In this document: piece by piece, positions 36,342 through 46,716 of the stretch
Layout of the letters: each line of letters starts with the position of its first letter
How positions within the stretch are numbered: position 1 is the first letter of the stretch
Source of the DNA: Candidatus Yanofskybacteria bacterium
GTDB lineage: Bacteria > Patescibacteriota > Minisyncoccia > 2-02-FULL-40-12 > GWA2-44-9
NCBI GenBank assembly: GCA_003514055.1
Contig: DOSG01000008.1
Span: forward strand, 208,087 to 259,162
Direction: 5' to 3'
Length of the DNA: 51,076 nt
The notes under the pieces: model-generated
Databases searched by the model: none
Told to the model about the DNA's origin: nothing
The model's input: only the letters and a program-made list of their open reading frames with translations
Position numbers and translations under genes: made by a program

Positions 36342-37397
36342 TTATCTAGAGTAACTCGACACCTGACTTACTGAAGTATATTCGGATCCCCTGGAATACC
36401 AATTGAACTCCATAGAATTAACGCAAAAAACCTTTTTGAAGAAATCGGCATCATCAATCAGGGCTTGCGCACTCGTAGTATTAACCCAATGCAAAATACC
36501 TGCATCTTCTCCGGTAGTTTCTATCCCATACACCTTCTGGTCATCAGTTTCACAGTTTCTGATCAACCCAGACGTTACCATAGTATCTCGTACAGTAGAA
36601 GTTATGCTTTTAACCTTATTAAATCCACCCAGGTGGCCATAGAAATTGAATATTATCGGATTAAGGAATAGCCTCTTGTAGCCCCAGGCATTCGCTATAT
36701 AGATATCGGGGTCAGTAGAGTTGATCGCTGAGATCGTATCCCCTTCGGTTAGATTTATGGCGGTCAGACTAGTAAAGCCCCTCGAAACTGGAGTAGCCAT
36801 ATTGACTGGATTGGGATTGCCGCTAGGAGTCGGAGAGAAAGATGGACTTGGCGTAGCAGAAGGAATTGGGGTTGGCGTGACTACGGTTCCCGGAAGCGTG
36901 ACAGCATTCCCATAAATAGGTACGCCGACTTGCGTTACAGACTCAGTATCACCGAAGATAAGATTCTTGAAACCAACTCGTACGATACCGGTCGCCGATG
37001 ATGACGGTGTACCACGAATCATGAACGTCTTTGTCGTTTGATAGTTTATCGTAATCTGAGAGAAAGAAAGAATATCTGGCTGATCGCCTGTCGCTGGATA
37101 TTCTTTTACAACGGTATTGGCGCCAGCAGTTACGTTGTATACAACGATGTTGGCAAAATTCTGTAAACCATTAATCGTATCAGTTCCGAGCTGAAAACCA
37201 GTAAGATGAAGGTCGCCAAATGTAGATGAGATATCAATCTTCGCCAAGTCAGCGAGCTGAGCATTTACATCGAGAGACTTTGCTGGAGGCGTACTAACAT
37301 TAAGTACCGCGTTAACCGTTAATCCATCTGCGTTAACAGCTAGAGTGGGTAGACCCAGACAAACGACCGCTATGAATAATCGTAATGAGTATCTCAT
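36342..37397 (-). CDS. Secreted surface protein with a C-terminal domain shared with the S-layer-like protein
   Basis: Signal peptide, beta-rich domain, TPTPIPSATPSPS linker, last 136 aa homologous to residues 44-177 of 37484..40885. Confidence 0.8.
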   Translation of the reverse strand: MRYSLRLFIAVVCLGLPTLAVNADGLTVNAVLNVSTPPAKSLDVNAQLADLAKIDISSTFGDLHLTGFQLGTDTINGLQNFANIVVYNVTAGANTVVKEYPATGDQPDILSFSQITINYQTTKTFMIRGTPSSSATGIVRVGFKNLIFGDTESVTQVGVPIYGNAVTLPGTVVTPTPIPSATPSPSFSPTPSGNPNPVNMATPVSRGFTSLTAINLTEGDTISAINSTDPDIYIANAWGYKRLFLNPIIFNFYGHLGGFNKVKSITSTVRDTMVTSGLIRNCETDDQKVYGIETTGEDAGILHWVNTTSAQALIDDADFFKKVFCVNSMEFNWYSRGSEYTSVSQVSSYSR

Positions 37398-37483: not shown

Positions 37484-40400
37484 CTAGATAGATAGTGACT
37501 GGCTAGTACCAATCGTCTGTATTAAGTAGTCGTTCATCCAATCATCCGTTGAAGTCGAGTGGGTAACAGCTGAGCTGTCAGACCATACAACTGAAGGCGA
37601 TGTAGAAGATAGAGTACTTCTTACGACCACAGCGTCATCCGTGATAGCTGAGCTAGACGGGTTAGCTATAGACGTAACGATTGATGCAGGAGCTACTGGG
37701 ACCGCAGTGACATCCACCTGCAACCTGTAAACGTGACCAATTGAATCAATCGGTCTCTCGTTAGTGAAGGTAAATGCTACCTGTCCGGTTCCAACTGCGA
37801 CTAGATCTAGATCAGCACTGGCGCTAGCGATAGAAGTCAAGCTGCTAATGTCTACGCCATCTTCGAAAAGTCTGTAGTCAGCGCTTAAAGCAGAAGAACC
37901 TCCTCCGATTTGGACGTTAACGGACTTAGCGATAGTGAATACTAATCTGTCTAGGTATACCGCCTGACTTCCAGATGAGGTTACCTTCGTTTGGAAGATA
38001 TCCTTCGCACCGGTTGCTAGGCTAGAACTCGATAAGGCTTGGTTAGCGAATACCGGGTAAGCAGTGTGGGAGATGATCGAATTACCGGTATAAGTTGCCG
38101 TAGCATAACCATTTGCGGTAGTTATGGTTCCAGAACTGTTGCGATATTTCAACCCATCCAATCTCACGATTACTAAACCTCCAGTATCGTTACGGCTAAT
38201 ACCAACATCTGCTAGCTGAACGGAAACTGTAAATGTCTGCTTTCCATCGGTCTGAGCTAACACCTTATTAACGCCAACGAAGGATGCTGATCCGGTTGTT
38301 GGGTTAACGGTGGCAGAACTCAACAAGACACCATTTCCATCCTTGAGCAATAGATTCGCTATTGCGCCAGATGAAGAAGCTGCTGTGCTTGAAAGATCTA
38401 CATAGACCTCATCAAGAGTGTAGTCGTCATAGGCTGGTTGGAGTGTAAACGAATATGCATTTACTGTATCTCCGCCCTTAGCTAACCTACTACCCGCGAT
38501 CGAACCGTTAGCCTTGGTTAATGAACCAGCGGCATAAGTAACGGTCTGACCATTAACACCAGTAGCAGTTGATGTGGTGCTAGAACCGGTAGTTATACCG
38601 ACTGCATCCATCTCAAAGTTCATATAACCAGCTGCGACTGTTGAAGTTAAGTTTGACCAAACCTCAACCTGGTAGGTCTTGTTCTTAGGCATCGTGAAGT
38701 TGACCGAGTAGCTGTTACTTGCAGTATCAGACAAGGTCGTCTTGACTGGCGATGTGTAAACCAATGTTCCAGCATCGTTGTAAACCTTCAAATAAGTATC
38801 CGACAAGTTCGAGGCTTTCATTGTGCTACCGCTGTTATCAGAATCCAAGTTAATCGTATTGACGCTTAGGTCTTCTGACGAAGCTGCTGCCAATGTGAAG
38901 TGGCCCATCTTGAAGTTATTCTTCGGAGCCACAACTGACTGGTTAGCATATCCACTGTACTTACCAGCTGAGAAAGAGCCGGTCTTTACGGTAACGCTGT
39001 TGCCAGTCTTTGCTGTGATATCAGTATAGTCCAAAGAAGTCATTCTCTGAACTGTACCTGTGGTTGCAACAATATTCGCAACGATTGTGTCGTTAGCGGC
39101 TGTATTGTCTGTACCATCGGCATCGTAGACGTCAGCTCTGACCTCCAACATTTTTGGAGTGCCTGGCGTGACTATGAACGATGAACCAAATGTGTATTCG
39201 GTGAAGACGGTTGACCAGCTATCTTCATTTAGGCTCTTAGTCGAACCGATCTGGACACCATCCAAAAAGATAGCTCCATTTCTTAATTGTCCAACATTCG
39301 AAGCTGCTGTCGATCCGCCATTACTGCTGGTGAAGCTATACTTCATGCTCTCAACTTTCATCTTCTCACCAGTAGCTTTGACTTCAAATTTAGCCAAGCT
39401 TACACCGGAAGCTCCCTTAACAACATCTCCCGTAGCTGAGTCGGTAGCCTTTGTAAAGGTAAGGACACCAGCTGCGATAGTCTGCGTTCCAGCGCTAGAA
39501 GCGGTGAAGGTTGTGCTATTGACCTGAGTTAAGATCGGCTGACCATACTGAGTGTCAACAGTGAAGAAATCTGGGGCCTGTCTAACAGATAGGTAGAAAT
39601 TTCTACCAGAACCATTTATGACATCGGCCATAACCTTAACTACTCTTCCACCAGTTTCCAATCTGACTGGAGCGCCAGTTAAGTCAAATAGAACATAACC
39701 ATTGCTGTCAGGTAGAGAAACGGCTGAACCCTTCTGAACTCCATCAACATATAATCTGAAGTTCTGAACATCGCCACTGTTTATTGAACCGATAACTCTG
39801 AACTGAACGCTCATGAGATTAGCAGCTCTAGTGTTAACGGTAACGGTATTCTGCCAAACATTTATGTCTGAGGCAGGGCTCAAGCTTGTGTTAGTAGAAA
39901 CGCCATTGGAAGTTGCCAATGAAACTGTTCCTAATGTTGCATTCGCAGGAGTGAATAAGTTACCAGATACACTCGCATTCATGCCGTTGAATTGAACCAA
40001 CTGCACGCCTACTGTATTACCGGTACTGGTAGCATCCAAATCAGCTCTTACAGAGATGGTCTTTGAACCAGAAACTGTAAATATTCCAACTGAATCGTTG
40101 AAGCTGATAACACCACTTGCTACGCTAGCGGCATCAGTTAATCTCTTTGCGCCATCGTACAAGTAAACATTGGTCAAATCAGTATCGGCTGAAACGCCAA
40201 TTCTGTTGAGTTTCAAGCTGGTGACTGTGCCACTACCAGTGAAGGTAAAGTGAGCTAAGTCTGCAGCAGCCTGACCCTTGACTAATGTTCCGGCAGCCGG
40301 ATTATCAGAGGCTAAGCCAACTGACAAATTCGTGCCTGGCTGGACTGAACCACCTCTTGTGTAAACAGGAATCTGGTTAACTGAGGTGTAGTCTGAACCC

Positions 40401-40885
40401 TTCTGGTACCAGTTGAATTCATTCTGGTTGATGACGAAAACCTTTTTAAAGAAGTTCGGGTCATCGGCAACGGCCTGAGCTCCGGTTGTGTTCACCCAGT
40501 GTAAAACTGCAGTGTCCTCACCAGTTGACTGAAGACCGTAGACCTTCTGATCACCATCGAGTCTGAACAATCCCGATGTCGGGAAAGCATCTCTGGCGAC
40601 AGCTGATACGTTCTTAACGTTGGCGAAACCGCCAAGGTGACCGTAGAAGCTGAAAATGACTGGGTTCAAGAATAATCTCTTGTAGCCCTGTTCATTTACG
40701 ATATAGATGTCCGGATCTGACGAACCAGCAGCACTAATAGTGTTGCCTTCTGTTAGACCGTAGTCTGACGGCATCGCGGCATTCGCTACTGGAGCGAGTA
40801 CTGCGAAACCTGATAACGACAATATAGTCGTTATGGCGGTAAGAGTTGCGACAACTCTCAAAGCCCTTTTCGATAAATTACTCAT
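37484..40885 (-). CDS. Large secreted S-layer-like/cell-surface protein with tandem Ig-like beta domains
   Basis: 1133 aa, signal peptide ending APVANA, Ser/Thr/Gly/Ala/Val-rich, no Cys, repeated beta-sandwich-like segments, own strong terminator. Confidence 0.8.
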   Translation of the reverse strand: MSNLSKRALRVVATLTAITTILSLSGFAVLAPVANAAMPSDYGLTEGNTISAAGSSDPDIYIVNEQGYKRLFLNPVIFSFYGHLGGFANVKNVSAVARDAFPTSGLFRLDGDQKVYGLQSTGEDTAVLHWVNTTGAQAVADDPNFFKKVFVINQNEFNWYQKGSDYTSVNQIPVYTRGGSVQPGTNLSVGLASDNPAAGTLVKGQAAADLAHFTFTGSGTVTSLKLNRIGVSADTDLTNVYLYDGAKRLTDAASVASGVISFNDSVGIFTVSGSKTISVRADLDATSTGNTVGVQLVQFNGMNASVSGNLFTPANATLGTVSLATSNGVSTNTSLSPASDINVWQNTVTVNTRAANLMSVQFRVIGSINSGDVQNFRLYVDGVQKGSAVSLPDSNGYVLFDLTGAPVRLETGGRVVKVMADVINGSGRNFYLSVRQAPDFFTVDTQYGQPILTQVNSTTFTASSAGTQTIAAGVLTFTKATDSATGDVVKGASGVSLAKFEVKATGEKMKVESMKYSFTSSNGGSTAASNVGQLRNGAIFLDGVQIGSTKSLNEDSWSTVFTEYTFGSSFIVTPGTPKMLEVRADVYDADGTDNTAANDTIVANIVATTGTVQRMTSLDYTDITAKTGNSVTVKTGSFSAGKYSGYANQSVVAPKNNFKMGHFTLAAASSEDLSVNTINLDSDNSGSTMKASNLSDTYLKVYNDAGTLVYTSPVKTTLSDTASNSYSVNFTMPKNKTYQVEVWSNLTSTVAAGYMNFEMDAVGITTGSSTTSTATGVNGQTVTYAAGSLTKANGSIAGSRLAKGGDTVNAYSFTLQPAYDDYTLDEVYVDLSSTAASSSGAIANLLLKDGNGVLLSSATVNPTTGSASFVGVNKVLAQTDGKQTFTVSVQLADVGISRNDTGGLVIVRLDGLKYRNSSGTITTANGYATATYTGNSIISHTAYPVFANQALSSSSLATGAKDIFQTKVTSSGSQAVYLDRLVFTIAKSVNVQIGGGSSALSADYRLFEDGVDISSLTSIASASADLDLVAVGTGQVAFTFTNERPIDSIGHVYRLQVDVTAVPVAPASIVTSIANPSSSAITDDAVVVRSTLSSTSPSVVWSDSSAVTHSTSTDDWMNDYLIQTIGTSQSLSI

Positions 40886-41051
40886 TTTATTTTTACTTTT
40901 ACTTTTGTACTGGGCTGTATTATCTATCGCGTTAAGCGAGGATAAATCGACCAGCGACAGAACAAAAGATTTTTATTATCAATTAATTACTCTTCATCCA
41001 TGTAATCTTTCTGTAATTTCTTTAACGACACCTTTACTAAAATAATCTCTT

Positions 41052-41162
41052 TCGAAACTACCCAAGATGTCGACGAGTTCTGCTAAGCCTACTTATACGC
41101 TTTCGCGTGGTGAGATTCATCATGTTTCGACCTAACAAATCTCGGCTAAGTGGCCTATCGAC
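41052..41162 (-). ncRNA. Candidate structured cis-regulatory RNA (multistem with pseudoknot) upstream of the S-layer-like gene
   Basis: Nested stems GTCGAT/GTCGAC, CTTAGCC/GGCTTAG, GAGATTTGTT/GATGAATCTC, an ACGC-GAAA-GCGT hairpin, and loop TCGAAAC complementary to downstream GTTTCGA; no family assignable by eye. Confidence 0.45.
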
Positions 41163-41299
41163 TGCAAAACCCTATATTACTCAATATATTAACTTTCTAT
41201 ACTTGATCTAATTTTCAACGATCATTCCTGATCTGCCCACCTCTACAAATCTATTTGACTTGCAAGGGTGGACGTACCAGCCTTCACATAAACAATAAA

Positions 41300-41318
41300 G
41301 CAGCCAAAACCTGGCTAC
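41300..41318 (-). terminator. Terminator-like hairpin in the upstream region
   Basis: GTAGCCA-GGTTT-TGGCTGC followed by TTTATTGTTT on the minus strand. Confidence 0.45.
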
Positions 41319-41432
41319 CGTGCGTTGTTTTCTGCAAATTTATTGCTCATATTTATAATTGTTTTTGGTTCTATTTTGACCACTTGTTGGCTTAAACCCT
41401 TATTATTATGACTAGTCTACGTGGTCTGTTTA

Positions 41433-41461
41433 ATACTAGCGCAAACTACCTAAAAAGTCAA
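41433..41461 (-). promoter_or_regulatory. Sigma70-type promoter about 550 nt upstream of the S-layer-like gene
   Basis: TTGACT (41461-41456), 17 nt, TAGTAT (41438-41433). Confidence 0.6.
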
Positions 41462-41502
41462 TTGGTTTTCTAATTAATTTTAAGGCAGCTTTTTGGCTCT
41501 TA

Positions 41503-41522
41503 TTGCTCATATTTATGAGCAA
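41503..41522. promoter_or_regulatory. Candidate operator palindrome
   Basis: TTGCTCATA-TT-TATGAGCAA; the 17-mer TTATTGCTCATATTTAT occurs at 41500-41516 and again at 41340-41356. Confidence 0.5.
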
Positions 41523-41617
41523 ACGTACACAACTTCTACTAATGAATAAATTATACTTTTTAAGTTTGGCGGCCACAATAGGCAAATTGTGGATAAACAA
41601 AGGATTTAGGCCGACAA

Positions 41618-42604
41618 TTAAAAACCGGCAGCGCTATTCCTCTGGCCAGGCGTTCCATTAATCGCATTGCCCTTAGAATCAAGGCCATTCTTAATCAATC
41701 CATTGTTCGACCTCCAATTCGATCTATCATTACTAGAAGCTGACGGATCCACTCTTTCCATAGAACTCTTGGTCTCGTTATCTCCGGCAAACCAACCAGA
41801 CGAACAGTTCACCTCGTCTATGATTTGGCCAGCACTATTTACTAACTGGACGGCCTCGCCGCTGTTATTAAGGCCAGCCTTACTGAAGCTAACAGCCAGA
41901 TCAGCCCAAACGTCAGAGATCGTATTGTTGTCGGTCCTTTCTATTAAATAATAACCTCGCGCAGGGATACTCTTTGATAAGCTCAACGTGAAGCCGCCAT
42001 CTGCTGTTTTTAGTGACAATCCCGAAAGACTGACTGCAATTTCGTTTGGGTTGTACAATTCGATCCACTCATCGTTAGTCGCGGCAGAGGTCCCCATCCA
42101 GGCAATTTCATTTATAACGACCGCGCGCGGTGAGGTAGTTAATTCTGGCGCTGGCGTAGCAGATGAAGTAGCAATAGGTGTCGGTGTTGAACTTGGTGTC
42201 AAATTTGGTGTCGGTGAAACTGGAGCTGACGATGGACTTGGCAACGACGCAGATGTTGGCCTTGCAGATGGTGACTGCAATACGACGGGAGCGGGAGTAA
42301 TCACAGGAGACACACCAGCAGTAATAGCCTGAGGACTAGGTGACATTATTGGTGACAAGCTGGGCTTTGGTGACATTATTGGTGACAACTTCGGTGACAC
42401 GAGCTTGTCACCTATCTTGTCACCAATAATATTAGCGGCTAAAGGAGTGTCCGCGCCGCTTAGTGAGTCGACGGAAAAGTAATCGCCGTTATCCGAGTTA
42501 AAATACGTAACTGTTTTTTGAGATAGCAAAAAGACGCCTAAAAGCGCCGCGGCAGAGATGAAGAAAAATAGGAAACGTAGTTTAGACGAATTTTCGTCTT
42601 CCAT
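41618..42604 (-). CDS. Membrane-anchored lamin-tail-domain (LTD) protein
   Basis: VVINEIAWMGT, NDEWIELYN, LNNSGEAVQL, GTPGQRNS motifs; N-terminal TM and Ser/Pro/Thr stalk. Confidence 0.88.
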   Translation of the reverse strand: MEDENSSKLRFLFFFISAAALLGVFLLSQKTVTYFNSDNGDYFSVDSLSGADTPLAANIIGDKIGDKLVSPKLSPIMSPKPSLSPIMSPSPQAITAGVSPVITPAPVVLQSPSARPTSASLPSPSSAPVSPTPNLTPSSTPTPIATSSATPAPELTTSPRAVVINEIAWMGTSAATNDEWIELYNPNEIAVSLSGLSLKTADGGFTLSLSKSIPARGYYLIERTDNNTISDVWADLAVSFSKAGLNNSGEAVQLVNSAGQIIDEVNCSSGWFAGDNETKSSMERVDPSASSNDRSNWRSNNGLIKNGLDSKGNAINGTPGQRNSAAGF

Positions 42605-45421: not shown

Positions 45422-46716
45422 TAGTATTCAAAGTTATTGTCTCTACATATTTTAGCATATTCAAGAGCAGAAGAACGAATCTTACGAGATTGATTATGGG
45501 CATAATCAATCTCAACCAAGCCGAAACGTGGACCATAGCCATGATGCCATTCGAAATTGTCTAAAAGAGACCAATACATATAGCCTCGGACATCAACTCC
45601 ATCTTGCATTGCTCGCCAAATCCAATAGAGATGATCTTTTATAAACTTTTCTCGACGAGAGTCAGCCGCATCGGCAATCCCATTTTCAGTTACGTAGACC
45701 GGCTTATTATATTTAGTCTTTAGGCCAGCTAGAACTTTGCATATACCTTCAGGATATATTTCCCAGCCCATATCTTCGACATAATCTAGCTTTGGTAAGA
45801 CAGAATAGCTTCCTGGTAGTCTTGCAATGTTGTAATAATTAAGACCTATAAAATCATAGTAGGGATAAGCCCTAGAGAGAAGAAAGAAGTTACGATAATA
45901 TTCGACTAACTTGCCCAGCCCTAATATCTTTAGATACCATGGCGCGACAATCCAAGCATTATTTTCCGTAACTCCAATTTGGGGCTCCTTAATATTATGC
46001 GACGCATGGGGAACCTCGGGCTCAGTCGGCGGAACATACTCTTTACTTGATGGCGCGGTCGGGGATTGGGAATATATTTCTTTAATCGTTTTATAGGCTA
46101 ATATGTGCGACCGAATAATGTTCTTATCGACTCGGAGCATCTTTAAAAAACTTCTAAACTGAGGCGGCCATATGCCTCTAAAATAAGCCATTCCAGAATA
46201 GATCGTAGTCCCCTCGTTAAAAGTTATCCACAGGCTGGCATCATCTCTCAAGCCCTCAACTACAAACCTTACAAACCTTACAAAACGTTCTGGTGATTTC
46301 TTATTTAGAAATCCTCCATCATTGGCAAACCAAACTGGATTAGTAAAATGCCACAACGTGATCATTGGCTCTATCCCCCGCTCTTTGAGCGCCCTGACTA
46401 CCTCTATGTAATGCTGCATCGCTTTCTGATCAAACTTACCTTCTTCTGGTTCGATGCGTGACCACTCAATCGAAAGACGGTGAATATTCTGGTTCAACTG
46501 TTTAGCTATATCAAAATCTTCTTGATATCTATTGAGGCTATCGCAAGCTAGGCCAGATACGAAATCGGCCGAGCTAAGGCCTTGCGCCTTAAGCTCACCC
46601 GCCCTCTTCTTAGATTTCTCCCATTCCGACCAATCGTTATAATTATTTCCTTCGATTTGATGAGATGAAGTAGCGCTCCCCCACCAAAATCCTTTTGGAA
46701 ATTCTATTTTCTGCAT
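45421..46716 (-). CDS. GH1 beta-glucosidase family protein
   Basis: WGSATSSHQIEG, RLSIEWSRIEP, TLWHF, TFNEG (acid/base), GLNYY, VTENG (nucleophile), WSLLDNFEW. Confidence 0.95.
   Translation of the reverse strand: MQKIEFPKGFWWGSATSSHQIEGNNYNDWSEWEKSKKRAGELKAQGLSSADFVSGLACDSLNRYQEDFDIAKQLNQNIHRLSIEWSRIEPEEGKFDQKAMQHYIEVVRALKERGIEPMITLWHFTNPVWFANDGGFLNKKSPERFVRFVRFVVEGLRDDASLWITFNEGTTIYSGMAYFRGIWPPQFRSFLKMLRVDKNIIRSHILAYKTIKEIYSQSPTAPSSKEYVPPTEPEVPHASHNIKEPQIGVTENNAWIVAPWYLKILGLGKLVEYYRNFFLLSRAYPYYDFIGLNYYNIARLPGSYSVLPKLDYVEDMGWEIYPEGICKVLAGLKTKYNKPVYVTENGIADAADSRREKFIKDHLYWIWRAMQDGVDVRGYMYWSLLDNFEWHHGYGPRFGLVEIDYAHNQSRKIRSSALEYAKICRDNNFEY

Follow-up and report, generated by a model that had tools for sequence, protein, structure and literature searches.

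A structured RNA domain lies ahead of a gene for a large secreted surface protein in Candidatus Yanofskybacteria. The sequence analyzed (the window) is 51,076 nt of contig DOSG01000008.1. Its largest intergenic gap (732 nt, positions 40886–41617) lies directly upstream of the gene, in a genome that is otherwise tightly packed. The domain occupies positions 41172–41075 within this gap. All coordinates are given in window numbering, and the domain, the leader elements and the surface-protein gene are on the minus strand. The leader RNA is conserved, covarying and strand-specific, and is fixed in position before one gene family.

A four-helix RNA domain in the leader

The gene and the parts of the domain are listed below.

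37484–40885, minus: downstream gene, encoding a secreted protein of 1133 aa; a signal peptide, then a small alpha/beta domain and many beta-sandwich domains in a long array, with a conserved C-terminal tail
41075–41172, minus: structured domain with four helices (P1, junction, P2, P3, P4), drawn from minimum free energy folding, covariance models and covariation
41164–41172, minus: P1 5′ strand, GGGUUUUGC, pairing with 41083–41075
41075–41083, minus: P1 3′ strand, GCAGAACUC; P1 is the true closing helix, 9 bp
41158–41163, minus: junction J1/2, AGUCGA, unpaired in the consensus fold; second RGUCGA copy
41147–41157, minus: P2 5′ strand, UAGGCC (41157–41152) and ACUUA (41151–41147)
41084–41095, minus: P2 3′ strand, UAAGU (41095–41091, pairing with ACUUA), a bulged A, and GGCUUA (pairing with UAGGCC)
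41112–41143, minus: P3 hairpin, stem GAGAUUUGUUA with UGAUGAAUCUC and loop GGUCGAAACA (41132–41123), which holds a near-invariant GGUCGA at 41132–41127
41097–41108, minus: P4 hairpin, ACGC-GAAA-GCGU, in the window fold

The 98-nt stretch 41172–41075 folds into one dominant structure (−34.1 kcal/mol, z = −4.74), and none of its shuffled versions folded as well (0 of 200). An initial annotation had drawn a pseudoknotted RNA over 41162–41052. The words that it quoted are all present on the minus strand where it placed them: GTCGAT (41162–41157), GTCGAC (41074–41069), CTTAGCC (41150–41144), GGCTTAG (41089–41083), GAGATTTGTT (41143–41134), GATGAATCTC (41121–41112), ACGC-GAAA-GCGT (41108–41097), TCGAAAC (41130–41124), GTTTCGA (41058–41052), TATATT (41188–41183) and TAATAT (41179–41174). 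The GC-richer island that it described is real and mild (0.44 in the region versus 0.28–0.39 in the flanks). Its span with short flanks (41045–41170) folded with z = −1.77, and 8 of 200 shuffles were as good; folding clearly beyond that of shuffled sequence was found for the redrawn domain.

The redrawing kept some of the proposed helices and replaced others. P3 is present with 11 bp and covaries. The position of the GAAA hairpin (P4) is real; a hairpin stands there in most, not all, family members, and its sequence, length and loop vary among genomes. For P2, the 3′ strand GGCUUA was placed correctly, and its 5′ partner is UAGGCC (41157–41152), not CUUAGCC. The pairing GUCGAU/GUCGAC, which had been named P1, was rejected in favor of a 9-bp helix lying outside it: GUCGAU is conserved as an unpaired junction, and GUCGAC forms the 5′ strand of another hairpin, P5. 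This pairing has no change on both sides, and one of its pairs is broken in three of four close relatives, the nearest of which read GCCGAC for GUCGAC.

A 7-bp pseudoknot between the P3 loop and GUUUCGA had also been proposed and was not borne out. In the window, GUUUCGA falls within P5. It is absent from the four closest relatives (deleted in loci L101 and L132, missing in L154 and L151), whose P3 loops show little or no change. The longest stretch of downstream leader complementary to the loop averaged 4.68 nt over the family, compared with 4.58 nt in a mismatched-locus control. Pairings similar to that of the window were found only in L007 and L011.

Conservation and covariation among orthologous leaders

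Orthologous leaders were collected by protein-guided scans, which gave 79 genome loci and 79 metagenome loci and, after reduction, 101 distinct leaders. The whole leader is collinear among orthologues. An nhmmer search with a 160-nt region against 56 orthologous leaders returned a single marginal match, and the domain region is almost without primary-sequence similarity among relatives, barring the words AGUCGA and GGUCGA. About 30 orthologous leaders that were folded singly have the same P1-P2-P3(-P4) layout with unrelated primary sequence. The domain is kept as structure, not as sequence. Alignment of 20 domains with MAFFT, followed by RNAalifold, did not recover the helices and returned only an invariant UCGAU:GUCGA pairing; covariance-model alignment was therefore used.

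Covariance model R1 was built from three sequences (the window and its two nearest relatives) and searched against 100 sources, 965 kb on both strands, with a cutoff of E ≤ 10. Matches to the second-round model, R2, were counted at E ≤ 1. There were 32 matches to R1 and 63 to R2, and the domain was the sole match in the window (100.6 bits with R1, 76.5 bits with R2). Every match in the 100 sources lies on the strand of the gene, and all but three lie 130–300 nt upstream of the orthologous ATG. Those three are a second weak match in L011 with each model, on a long upstream hairpin, and a marginal extra R2 match in L095. The other 59 loci again had domain-type matches in orthologue leaders, and none adjoins a locus with paralogues only. 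Exceptions among them were the L011-type hairpin in L093 and L094, a marginal match in L071 (E = 1.6) and a weak antisense match in L133 (E = 5.2). The second R1 match in L011, with its copies in L093 and L094, was rejected as a second domain, being a different long hairpin. By covariance model, about 60 of the 100 distinct leaders have the full four-helix module.

Covariation was counted on 62 distinct sequences. In this alignment, which was fitted to the model's structure and is biased in its favor, 85.6% of cells were paired, versus 57.4% in shuffled alignments (reached by 0 of 500 shuffles) and 35–49% with slid partners. Compensatory cells, with changes on both sides, numbered 618 versus 197 in the shuffled control and affected all 33 pairs. 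A 31-sequence alignment gave a similar result. P1 is the best-kept helix (90.4% of cells paired, both-side changes at 9 of 9 pairs), and P3 (86.8%, 11 of 11) and P2 (81.1%, 11 of 11) follow the same pattern. As one example, P2 pair G19-C86 of the window is A-U in L101 and L132. The single-sequence folds and the strand specificity of the matches are free of the alignment-fitting bias. The covariation test suggested in the initial annotation upheld a covarying structure and did not uphold the P1 and pseudoknot drawn there.

A small RNA gene of its own, or a fold arisen by chance in an AT-rich spacer, would suit the large size of the intergenic gap and the z-score of the span as first drawn. Chance is excluded by the covariation and by the z-score of the redrawn domain. 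In about 60 genomes the domain keeps a fixed orientation and distance relative to the same gene, and no promoter or terminator flanks it, which leaves this explanation hardly credible.

Base conservation was counted on 60 distinct domains. Only the loop hexamer GGUCGA is conserved at ≥90%, and the gucga of J1/2 is conserved at 70–90%. GGTCGA occurs in 96 of the 101 distinct leaders at a median position of −165. Taking a leader as 330 nt, RGTCGA occurs 1.72 times per leader versus 0.115 expected from the loci as a whole. Unconstrained folds place 87 of 110 sites in hairpin loops. Stems closing GGUCGA have widely different sequences and covary. A control of stem length with chimeric flanks (7.4 bp versus 4.8 bp) is weakened by the kinship of the loci and is taken as supporting evidence only. 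The window holds 11 copies of GGTCGA on both strands, and the copy at 41132 has by far the best closing stem.

Leaders carry one to four RGUCGA copies on scaffolds that differ by lineage. The first type is one long hairpin (e.g., L001, L006, L008). The second has two GGUCGA copies about 35 nt apart, with GAGUCUUAA before the first (e.g., L023, L058, L062). The third is the four-helix junction with AGUCGA in J1/2, found in the window and about 30 others. The third GGUCGA of the window leader (40952–40947) is the copy nearest to the AUG, 62–67 nt before it, and lies in a downstream hairpin, P6. T-loops have the consensus U-(G/U)-N-R-A. Classing the GGUCGAAA loop as a T-loop or as GNRA-type was dropped because the UCGAA pentamer misfits the T-loop consensus. 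Another GGUCGA, with a 9-bp closing stem containing one mismatch, is found at 41690–41721 (minus strand), within the 3′ portion of the LTD-domain gene that lies upstream, and precedes the first promoter of the leader by about 100 nt; it may be a chance occurrence.

UCGA is palindromic, so J1/2 and the P3 loop could pair together. Such a contact is central to one alternative, a self-contained stabilizer fold without a trans-acting factor. The module and its neighboring hairpins would do no more than guard the mRNA against ribonucleases and leave the gene's A-rich start region open, and a tertiary contact between UCGAU of J1/2 and GUCGA of the loop would lock the junction. Exactly this 5-bp contact was predicted by RNAalifold on the MAFFT alignment, and it can form in 97% of cells. 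The 421 nt preceding the AUG are also very stable overall (z = −5.65), and stabilizing 5′ untranslated regions (UTRs) are documented for S-layer genes (PMC3666127, PMC10221546). However, the loop does not follow J1/2. Single-hairpin leaders with a degenerate or missing J1/2 (L001, L004, L006, L008, L013, L019, L009) keep the loop hexamer, and loci with a changed J1/2 (GCCAA in L082, GUCAA in L126) have no compensation in the loop. A tertiary contact alone leaves six invariant bases in about 96 lineages unexplained. We regard a factor-free stabilizer as rather unlikely.

Other elements of the leader and the downstream gene

Further elements were found on both sides of the domain.

41550–41596, minus: promoter A with an upstream box; TTATCCACA (41596–41588), 9 nt, TTGTGG (41578–41573), 17 nt, TATAAT (41555–41550)
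41433–41461, minus: promoter B, TTGACT-17-TAGTAT, near-consensus and conserved
41315–41350, minus: upstream reading frame of 11 codons, MSNKFAENNAR and stop; ATG at 41350, UAG (41317–41315) inside the 5′ arm of the terminator-like hairpin
41290–41319, minus: terminator-like hairpin, GGUAGCCA with UGGCUGCU (41319–41299), then a U-rich tract
41228–41280, minus: long, conserved hairpin (CUGGU, GUCCACC, UUGCAAGUC and their partners); orthologues have a hairpin of other sequence at the same position
41193–41230, minus: A-rich block, mostly single-stranded; consensus AGGAnnGAACRUUGAAAA..GAAAAGAAA in a 16-leader alignment, CAGGAAUGAUCGUUGAAAAUUAGAUCAAGUAUAGAAAG in the window
41026–41072, minus: P5 hairpin directly after the domain, outer stem CGACAUCUU with AAGGUGUCG; holds GUCGAC and GUUUCGA
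40902–40968, minus: composite hairpin P6, which stops about 17 nt short of the AUG; holds the third GGUCGA

The two conserved promoters are of sigma-70 type and precede the domain by about 260 and 380 nt; the terminator-like hairpin intervenes. In 99 of the 101 leaders there is a match to TTGAC-N(17-20)-TAnn[AC]T, at a median of −501 from the ATG. Conservation of promoter B implies a 5′ UTR of roughly 430–580 nt, about 540 nt in the window. The initial annotation had placed possible −10 boxes (TATATT and TAATAT) just upstream of the domain. These are not conserved, and a promoter directly upstream was rejected, with any sigma-70-like site at that position in only 2 of 60 domains.

The TTATCCACA box occurs in 76 of the 101 leaders, and for 60 of 85 boxes the −10 element starts 39–41 nt after the start of the box. 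It is a perfect DnaA-box-like 9-mer with only one further perfect copy in the window (46224–46232, within a gene). Some leaders have two box-plus-promoter units 64–79 nt apart. The box may be an activator site for the surface-protein gene, used by DnaA or another factor. Each promoter is followed by one copy of a 17-nt direct repeat, ATAAATATGAGCAATAA (41516–41500 and 41356–41340, minus strand). Both copies contain ATG AGC AAT (Met-Ser-Asn) and resemble the main start, ATG AGT AAT, with its A-rich context; they may be decoy or regulatory start sites.

A terminator-like hairpin lies 40–130 nt past the predicted start in 73 of the 101 leaders, and its arms covary. Among 46 leaders with a UAR-CC arm, 23 have an ATG frame that ends exactly at that stop, and the frame is 10–13 codons long in 18 of these. 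Only 3.2% of all UAR triplets in leaders terminate such a frame. Peptide sequences vary between clades, and class-I leaders do not have the frame. A frame ending in a terminator arm suggests translation-coupled control of termination. In the leader, conserved control elements are unusually dense, given that intergenic gaps elsewhere in the genome are tiny. An ambitious reading combines them. The GGUCGA module would be the docking site of a Patescibacteria-specific regulator, either protein or RNA. Together with the DnaA-box-like element 9 nt before the promoter A −35, the second strong promoter and the 10–13-codon frame with its stop in the terminator arm, it would form a multi-layer circuit tying surface-protein synthesis to replication status and translation capacity in these ultra-small bacteria with reduced genomes. 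We consider such a circuit unlikely.

Directly 5′ of the domain is the conserved, unstructured A-rich block, which may be where an RNase enters or a protein binds. The domain might then be a ribonuclease recognition or processing signal: cleavage in the block (41230–41193) would leave P1 as a protective 5′ stem, and GGUCGA would guide or block the enzyme. That P1 is the best-kept helix and that no promoter adjoins the domain would agree with processing. The proposal is purely inferential, an RNase with GGUCGA specificity is not known, and we find it distinctly improbable.

Downstream of the domain, the outer stem of P5 is kept by compensatory changes in L101 and L132 (CGACGGCUU with AAGUCGUCG). 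P6 contains blocks UYCUGUUCUG and GGUCGAUUUAUCC, both conserved in the 16-leader alignment.

The Rfam and riboswitch question was addressed with cmscan and Rfam 15. The whole window at gathering score gave no match. Positions 40800–41700 at E ≤ 10 gave four unrelated noise matches only and no match to RF00379, RF01051 or RF01786, and ten orthologous loci gave one tRNA match only. No description of such a leader in Patescibacteria was found in the literature. The initial annotation had offered two readings. An undescribed cis-regulatory RNA ahead of the surface-protein gene agrees with the conserved, covarying, strand-specific structure found in orthologue leaders only and without an Rfam 15 match. 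A riboswitch variant akin to ydaO or c-di-GMP does not, as the Rfam scan proposed with it returned no ydaO-yuaA, c-di-GMP-I or c-di-GMP-II match even at E ≤ 10.

Some genes controlled by ydaO concern the cell wall. A riboswitch aptamer, for a small ligand outside the described classes or as a variant of ydaO or c-di-GMP, would share with those riboswitches a multi-helix RNA in a 5′ leader. The multi-helix junction, the conserved bases in junction and loop, and the orphan status of the RNA in Rfam would all be in keeping with one. However, the pattern of conservation is unlike that of a small-molecule aptamer. Only 6 to 11 bases are conserved among the 60 distinct domains, the GGGGA and CCCG elements of ydaO are missing (as had been pointed out at the outset), and the scaffold varies over orthologues between one hairpin, two hairpins and a junction, with about 40% of orthologous leaders having the hairpin only. 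No expression platform, either terminator or start-masking helix, adjoins the domain: P5 has no U-tract in the window, L101 or L132, and about 190 nt, including two more hairpins, separate the domain from the AUG. Neither the pseudoknot behind the riboswitch idea nor the local promoter is conserved; the conserved promoters are far upstream. An aptamer is very unlikely.

The 1133-aa protein has homologues in Patescibacteria only (names include Pacebacteria, Yanofskybacteria, Parcubacteria and Paceibacterota), and the closest non-self homologue is 61% identical. It has no Pfam domain and no sequence match in the PDB. An AlphaFold2 model (mean pLDDT 80.6) has a small alpha/beta N-terminal domain followed by a string of beta-sandwiches. 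A Foldseek search with this model returned generic Ig-like arrays, adhesins and pilins only (TM about 0.1) and no specific S-layer homologue. Among the envelope proteins of a large Paceibacteria/Yanofskybacteria clade, it is probably the most abundant. The start region of its gene (40886–40905, minus strand) is UAAAAGUAAAAAUAAAAUG, also given as AAAAGUAAAAAUAAAAUG, and is A-rich without a Shine-Dalgarno sequence. The gene is presumably very highly expressed, yet lacks that sequence, and AAAUAGUAAAAAUAAAAUG is common to the orthologues.

Directly downstream of the gene, a 351-aa open reading frame (36342–37397, minus strand) has a C-terminal copy of a domain of about 140 aa from the N-terminus of the 1133-aa protein, with the signature …TEGDTISA..DPDIYI..GYKRLFLNP…. 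More paralogues carrying this domain are found in loci L063–L079, and the RNA module is present in none of them.

Interpretation and comparison with known leaders

With middling confidence, we interpret the domain as a structured 5′-UTR module that acts post-transcriptionally, on stability and/or translation, through a factor that binds RGUCGA. Positions 41172–41075 would be a cis-acting module within a long leader of the surface-protein mRNA, transcribed from the distant promoters (about 540 nt if the start is that of promoter B). P1 and P2 enclose the long P3 and the short P4, with helix sequences free to drift while pairing is kept. On this scaffold the P3 loop presents GGUCGA and the P1/P2 junction presents AGUCGA; the last hairpin before the start codon has the third copy. 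A trans-acting factor would recognize the exposed copies by their sequence; it would most likely be an RNA-binding protein, possibly a multimer contacting several copies. The module would then act after transcription on the lifetime and/or the translation of a very abundant mRNA, and the direction of this effect is likewise a matter of inference. A factor-mediated role is favored because the short, invariant, single-stranded motif is present in one to four copies and because S-layer leaders provide a precedent. A displayed, repeated motif fits recognition by a trans-acting factor, not a small-molecule pocket.

Several points weigh against a factor-mediated module. The transcription start, possible processing, and transcription past the upstream terminator-like hairpin are predictions from sequence. 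The binding protein is likewise a predicted partner, and RGUCGA does not match the GGA consensus of CsrA. About 40 of 100 leaders keep the hairpin only, without the full four-helix module, and the covariation alignments favor the structure to which they were fitted. The pairing of J1/2 with the loop is available in nearly all cells and shows no covariation either way. Finally, the S-layer identity of the 1133-aa protein is not proven.

Gene regulation in Patescibacteria (Candidate Phyla Radiation) is, to our knowledge, little known, and almost no cis-regulatory RNAs have been described in the group. The module adds a well-supported orphan motif, with about 60 covarying full modules and the core hairpin in 96 of 101 leaders. 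Its six-base loop is a handle for fishing out an RNA-binding regulator, and the leader is a natural high-expression element usable for genetic tools in Patescibacteria. It would be of greater interest if a dedicated regulator, or a link to DnaA and to translation-coupled attenuation, proves true. If it is only a stabilizer, it is still a new family of a familiar kind.

Three known systems were compared besides the riboswitches. In lactobacilli, S-layer mRNAs have long half-lives owing to long structured 5′ UTRs, with tandem promoters and a start site that is kept open (PMC3666127, PMC10221546). The slpA leaders of L. acidophilus and L. crispatus share with the present leader a long 5′ region before a very abundant secreted surface protein, stable stem-loops and an exposed translation start, and the S-layer genes of L. 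brevis and L. acidophilus share two tandem promoters. There is no sequence or structural homology, and the present leader is far longer (about 430–580 nt from promoter B to ATG). It also differs in its invariant loop hexamer (1–4 copies), four-helix junction, upstream frame overlapping a terminator, and patescibacterial host. The half-life effect is documented for the Lactobacillus leaders and may hold for the leader described here.

Leaders bound by CsrA/RsmA show several GGA motifs in hairpin loops, with the consensus A(N)GGA. The shared features are a short motif present one to four times per leader, its placement mostly in hairpin loops or unpaired junctions, and sequence-variable scaffolds. 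In contrast, the motif here is RGUCGA, none of whose copies overlaps a Shine-Dalgarno sequence. In E. coli, the ompA 5′ UTR has a 5′-terminal stabilizer hairpin that prolongs the half-life of an abundant envelope-protein mRNA. The likeness is a structured leader on such an mRNA; unlike the ompA hairpin, the domain lies downstream of the predicted primary 5′ end and would be terminal only after processing. The RNA is a new family whose general kind, a surface-protein mRNA with a structured leader, is familiar; it is unusual in its invariant loop motif and in how elaborate its upstream context is.

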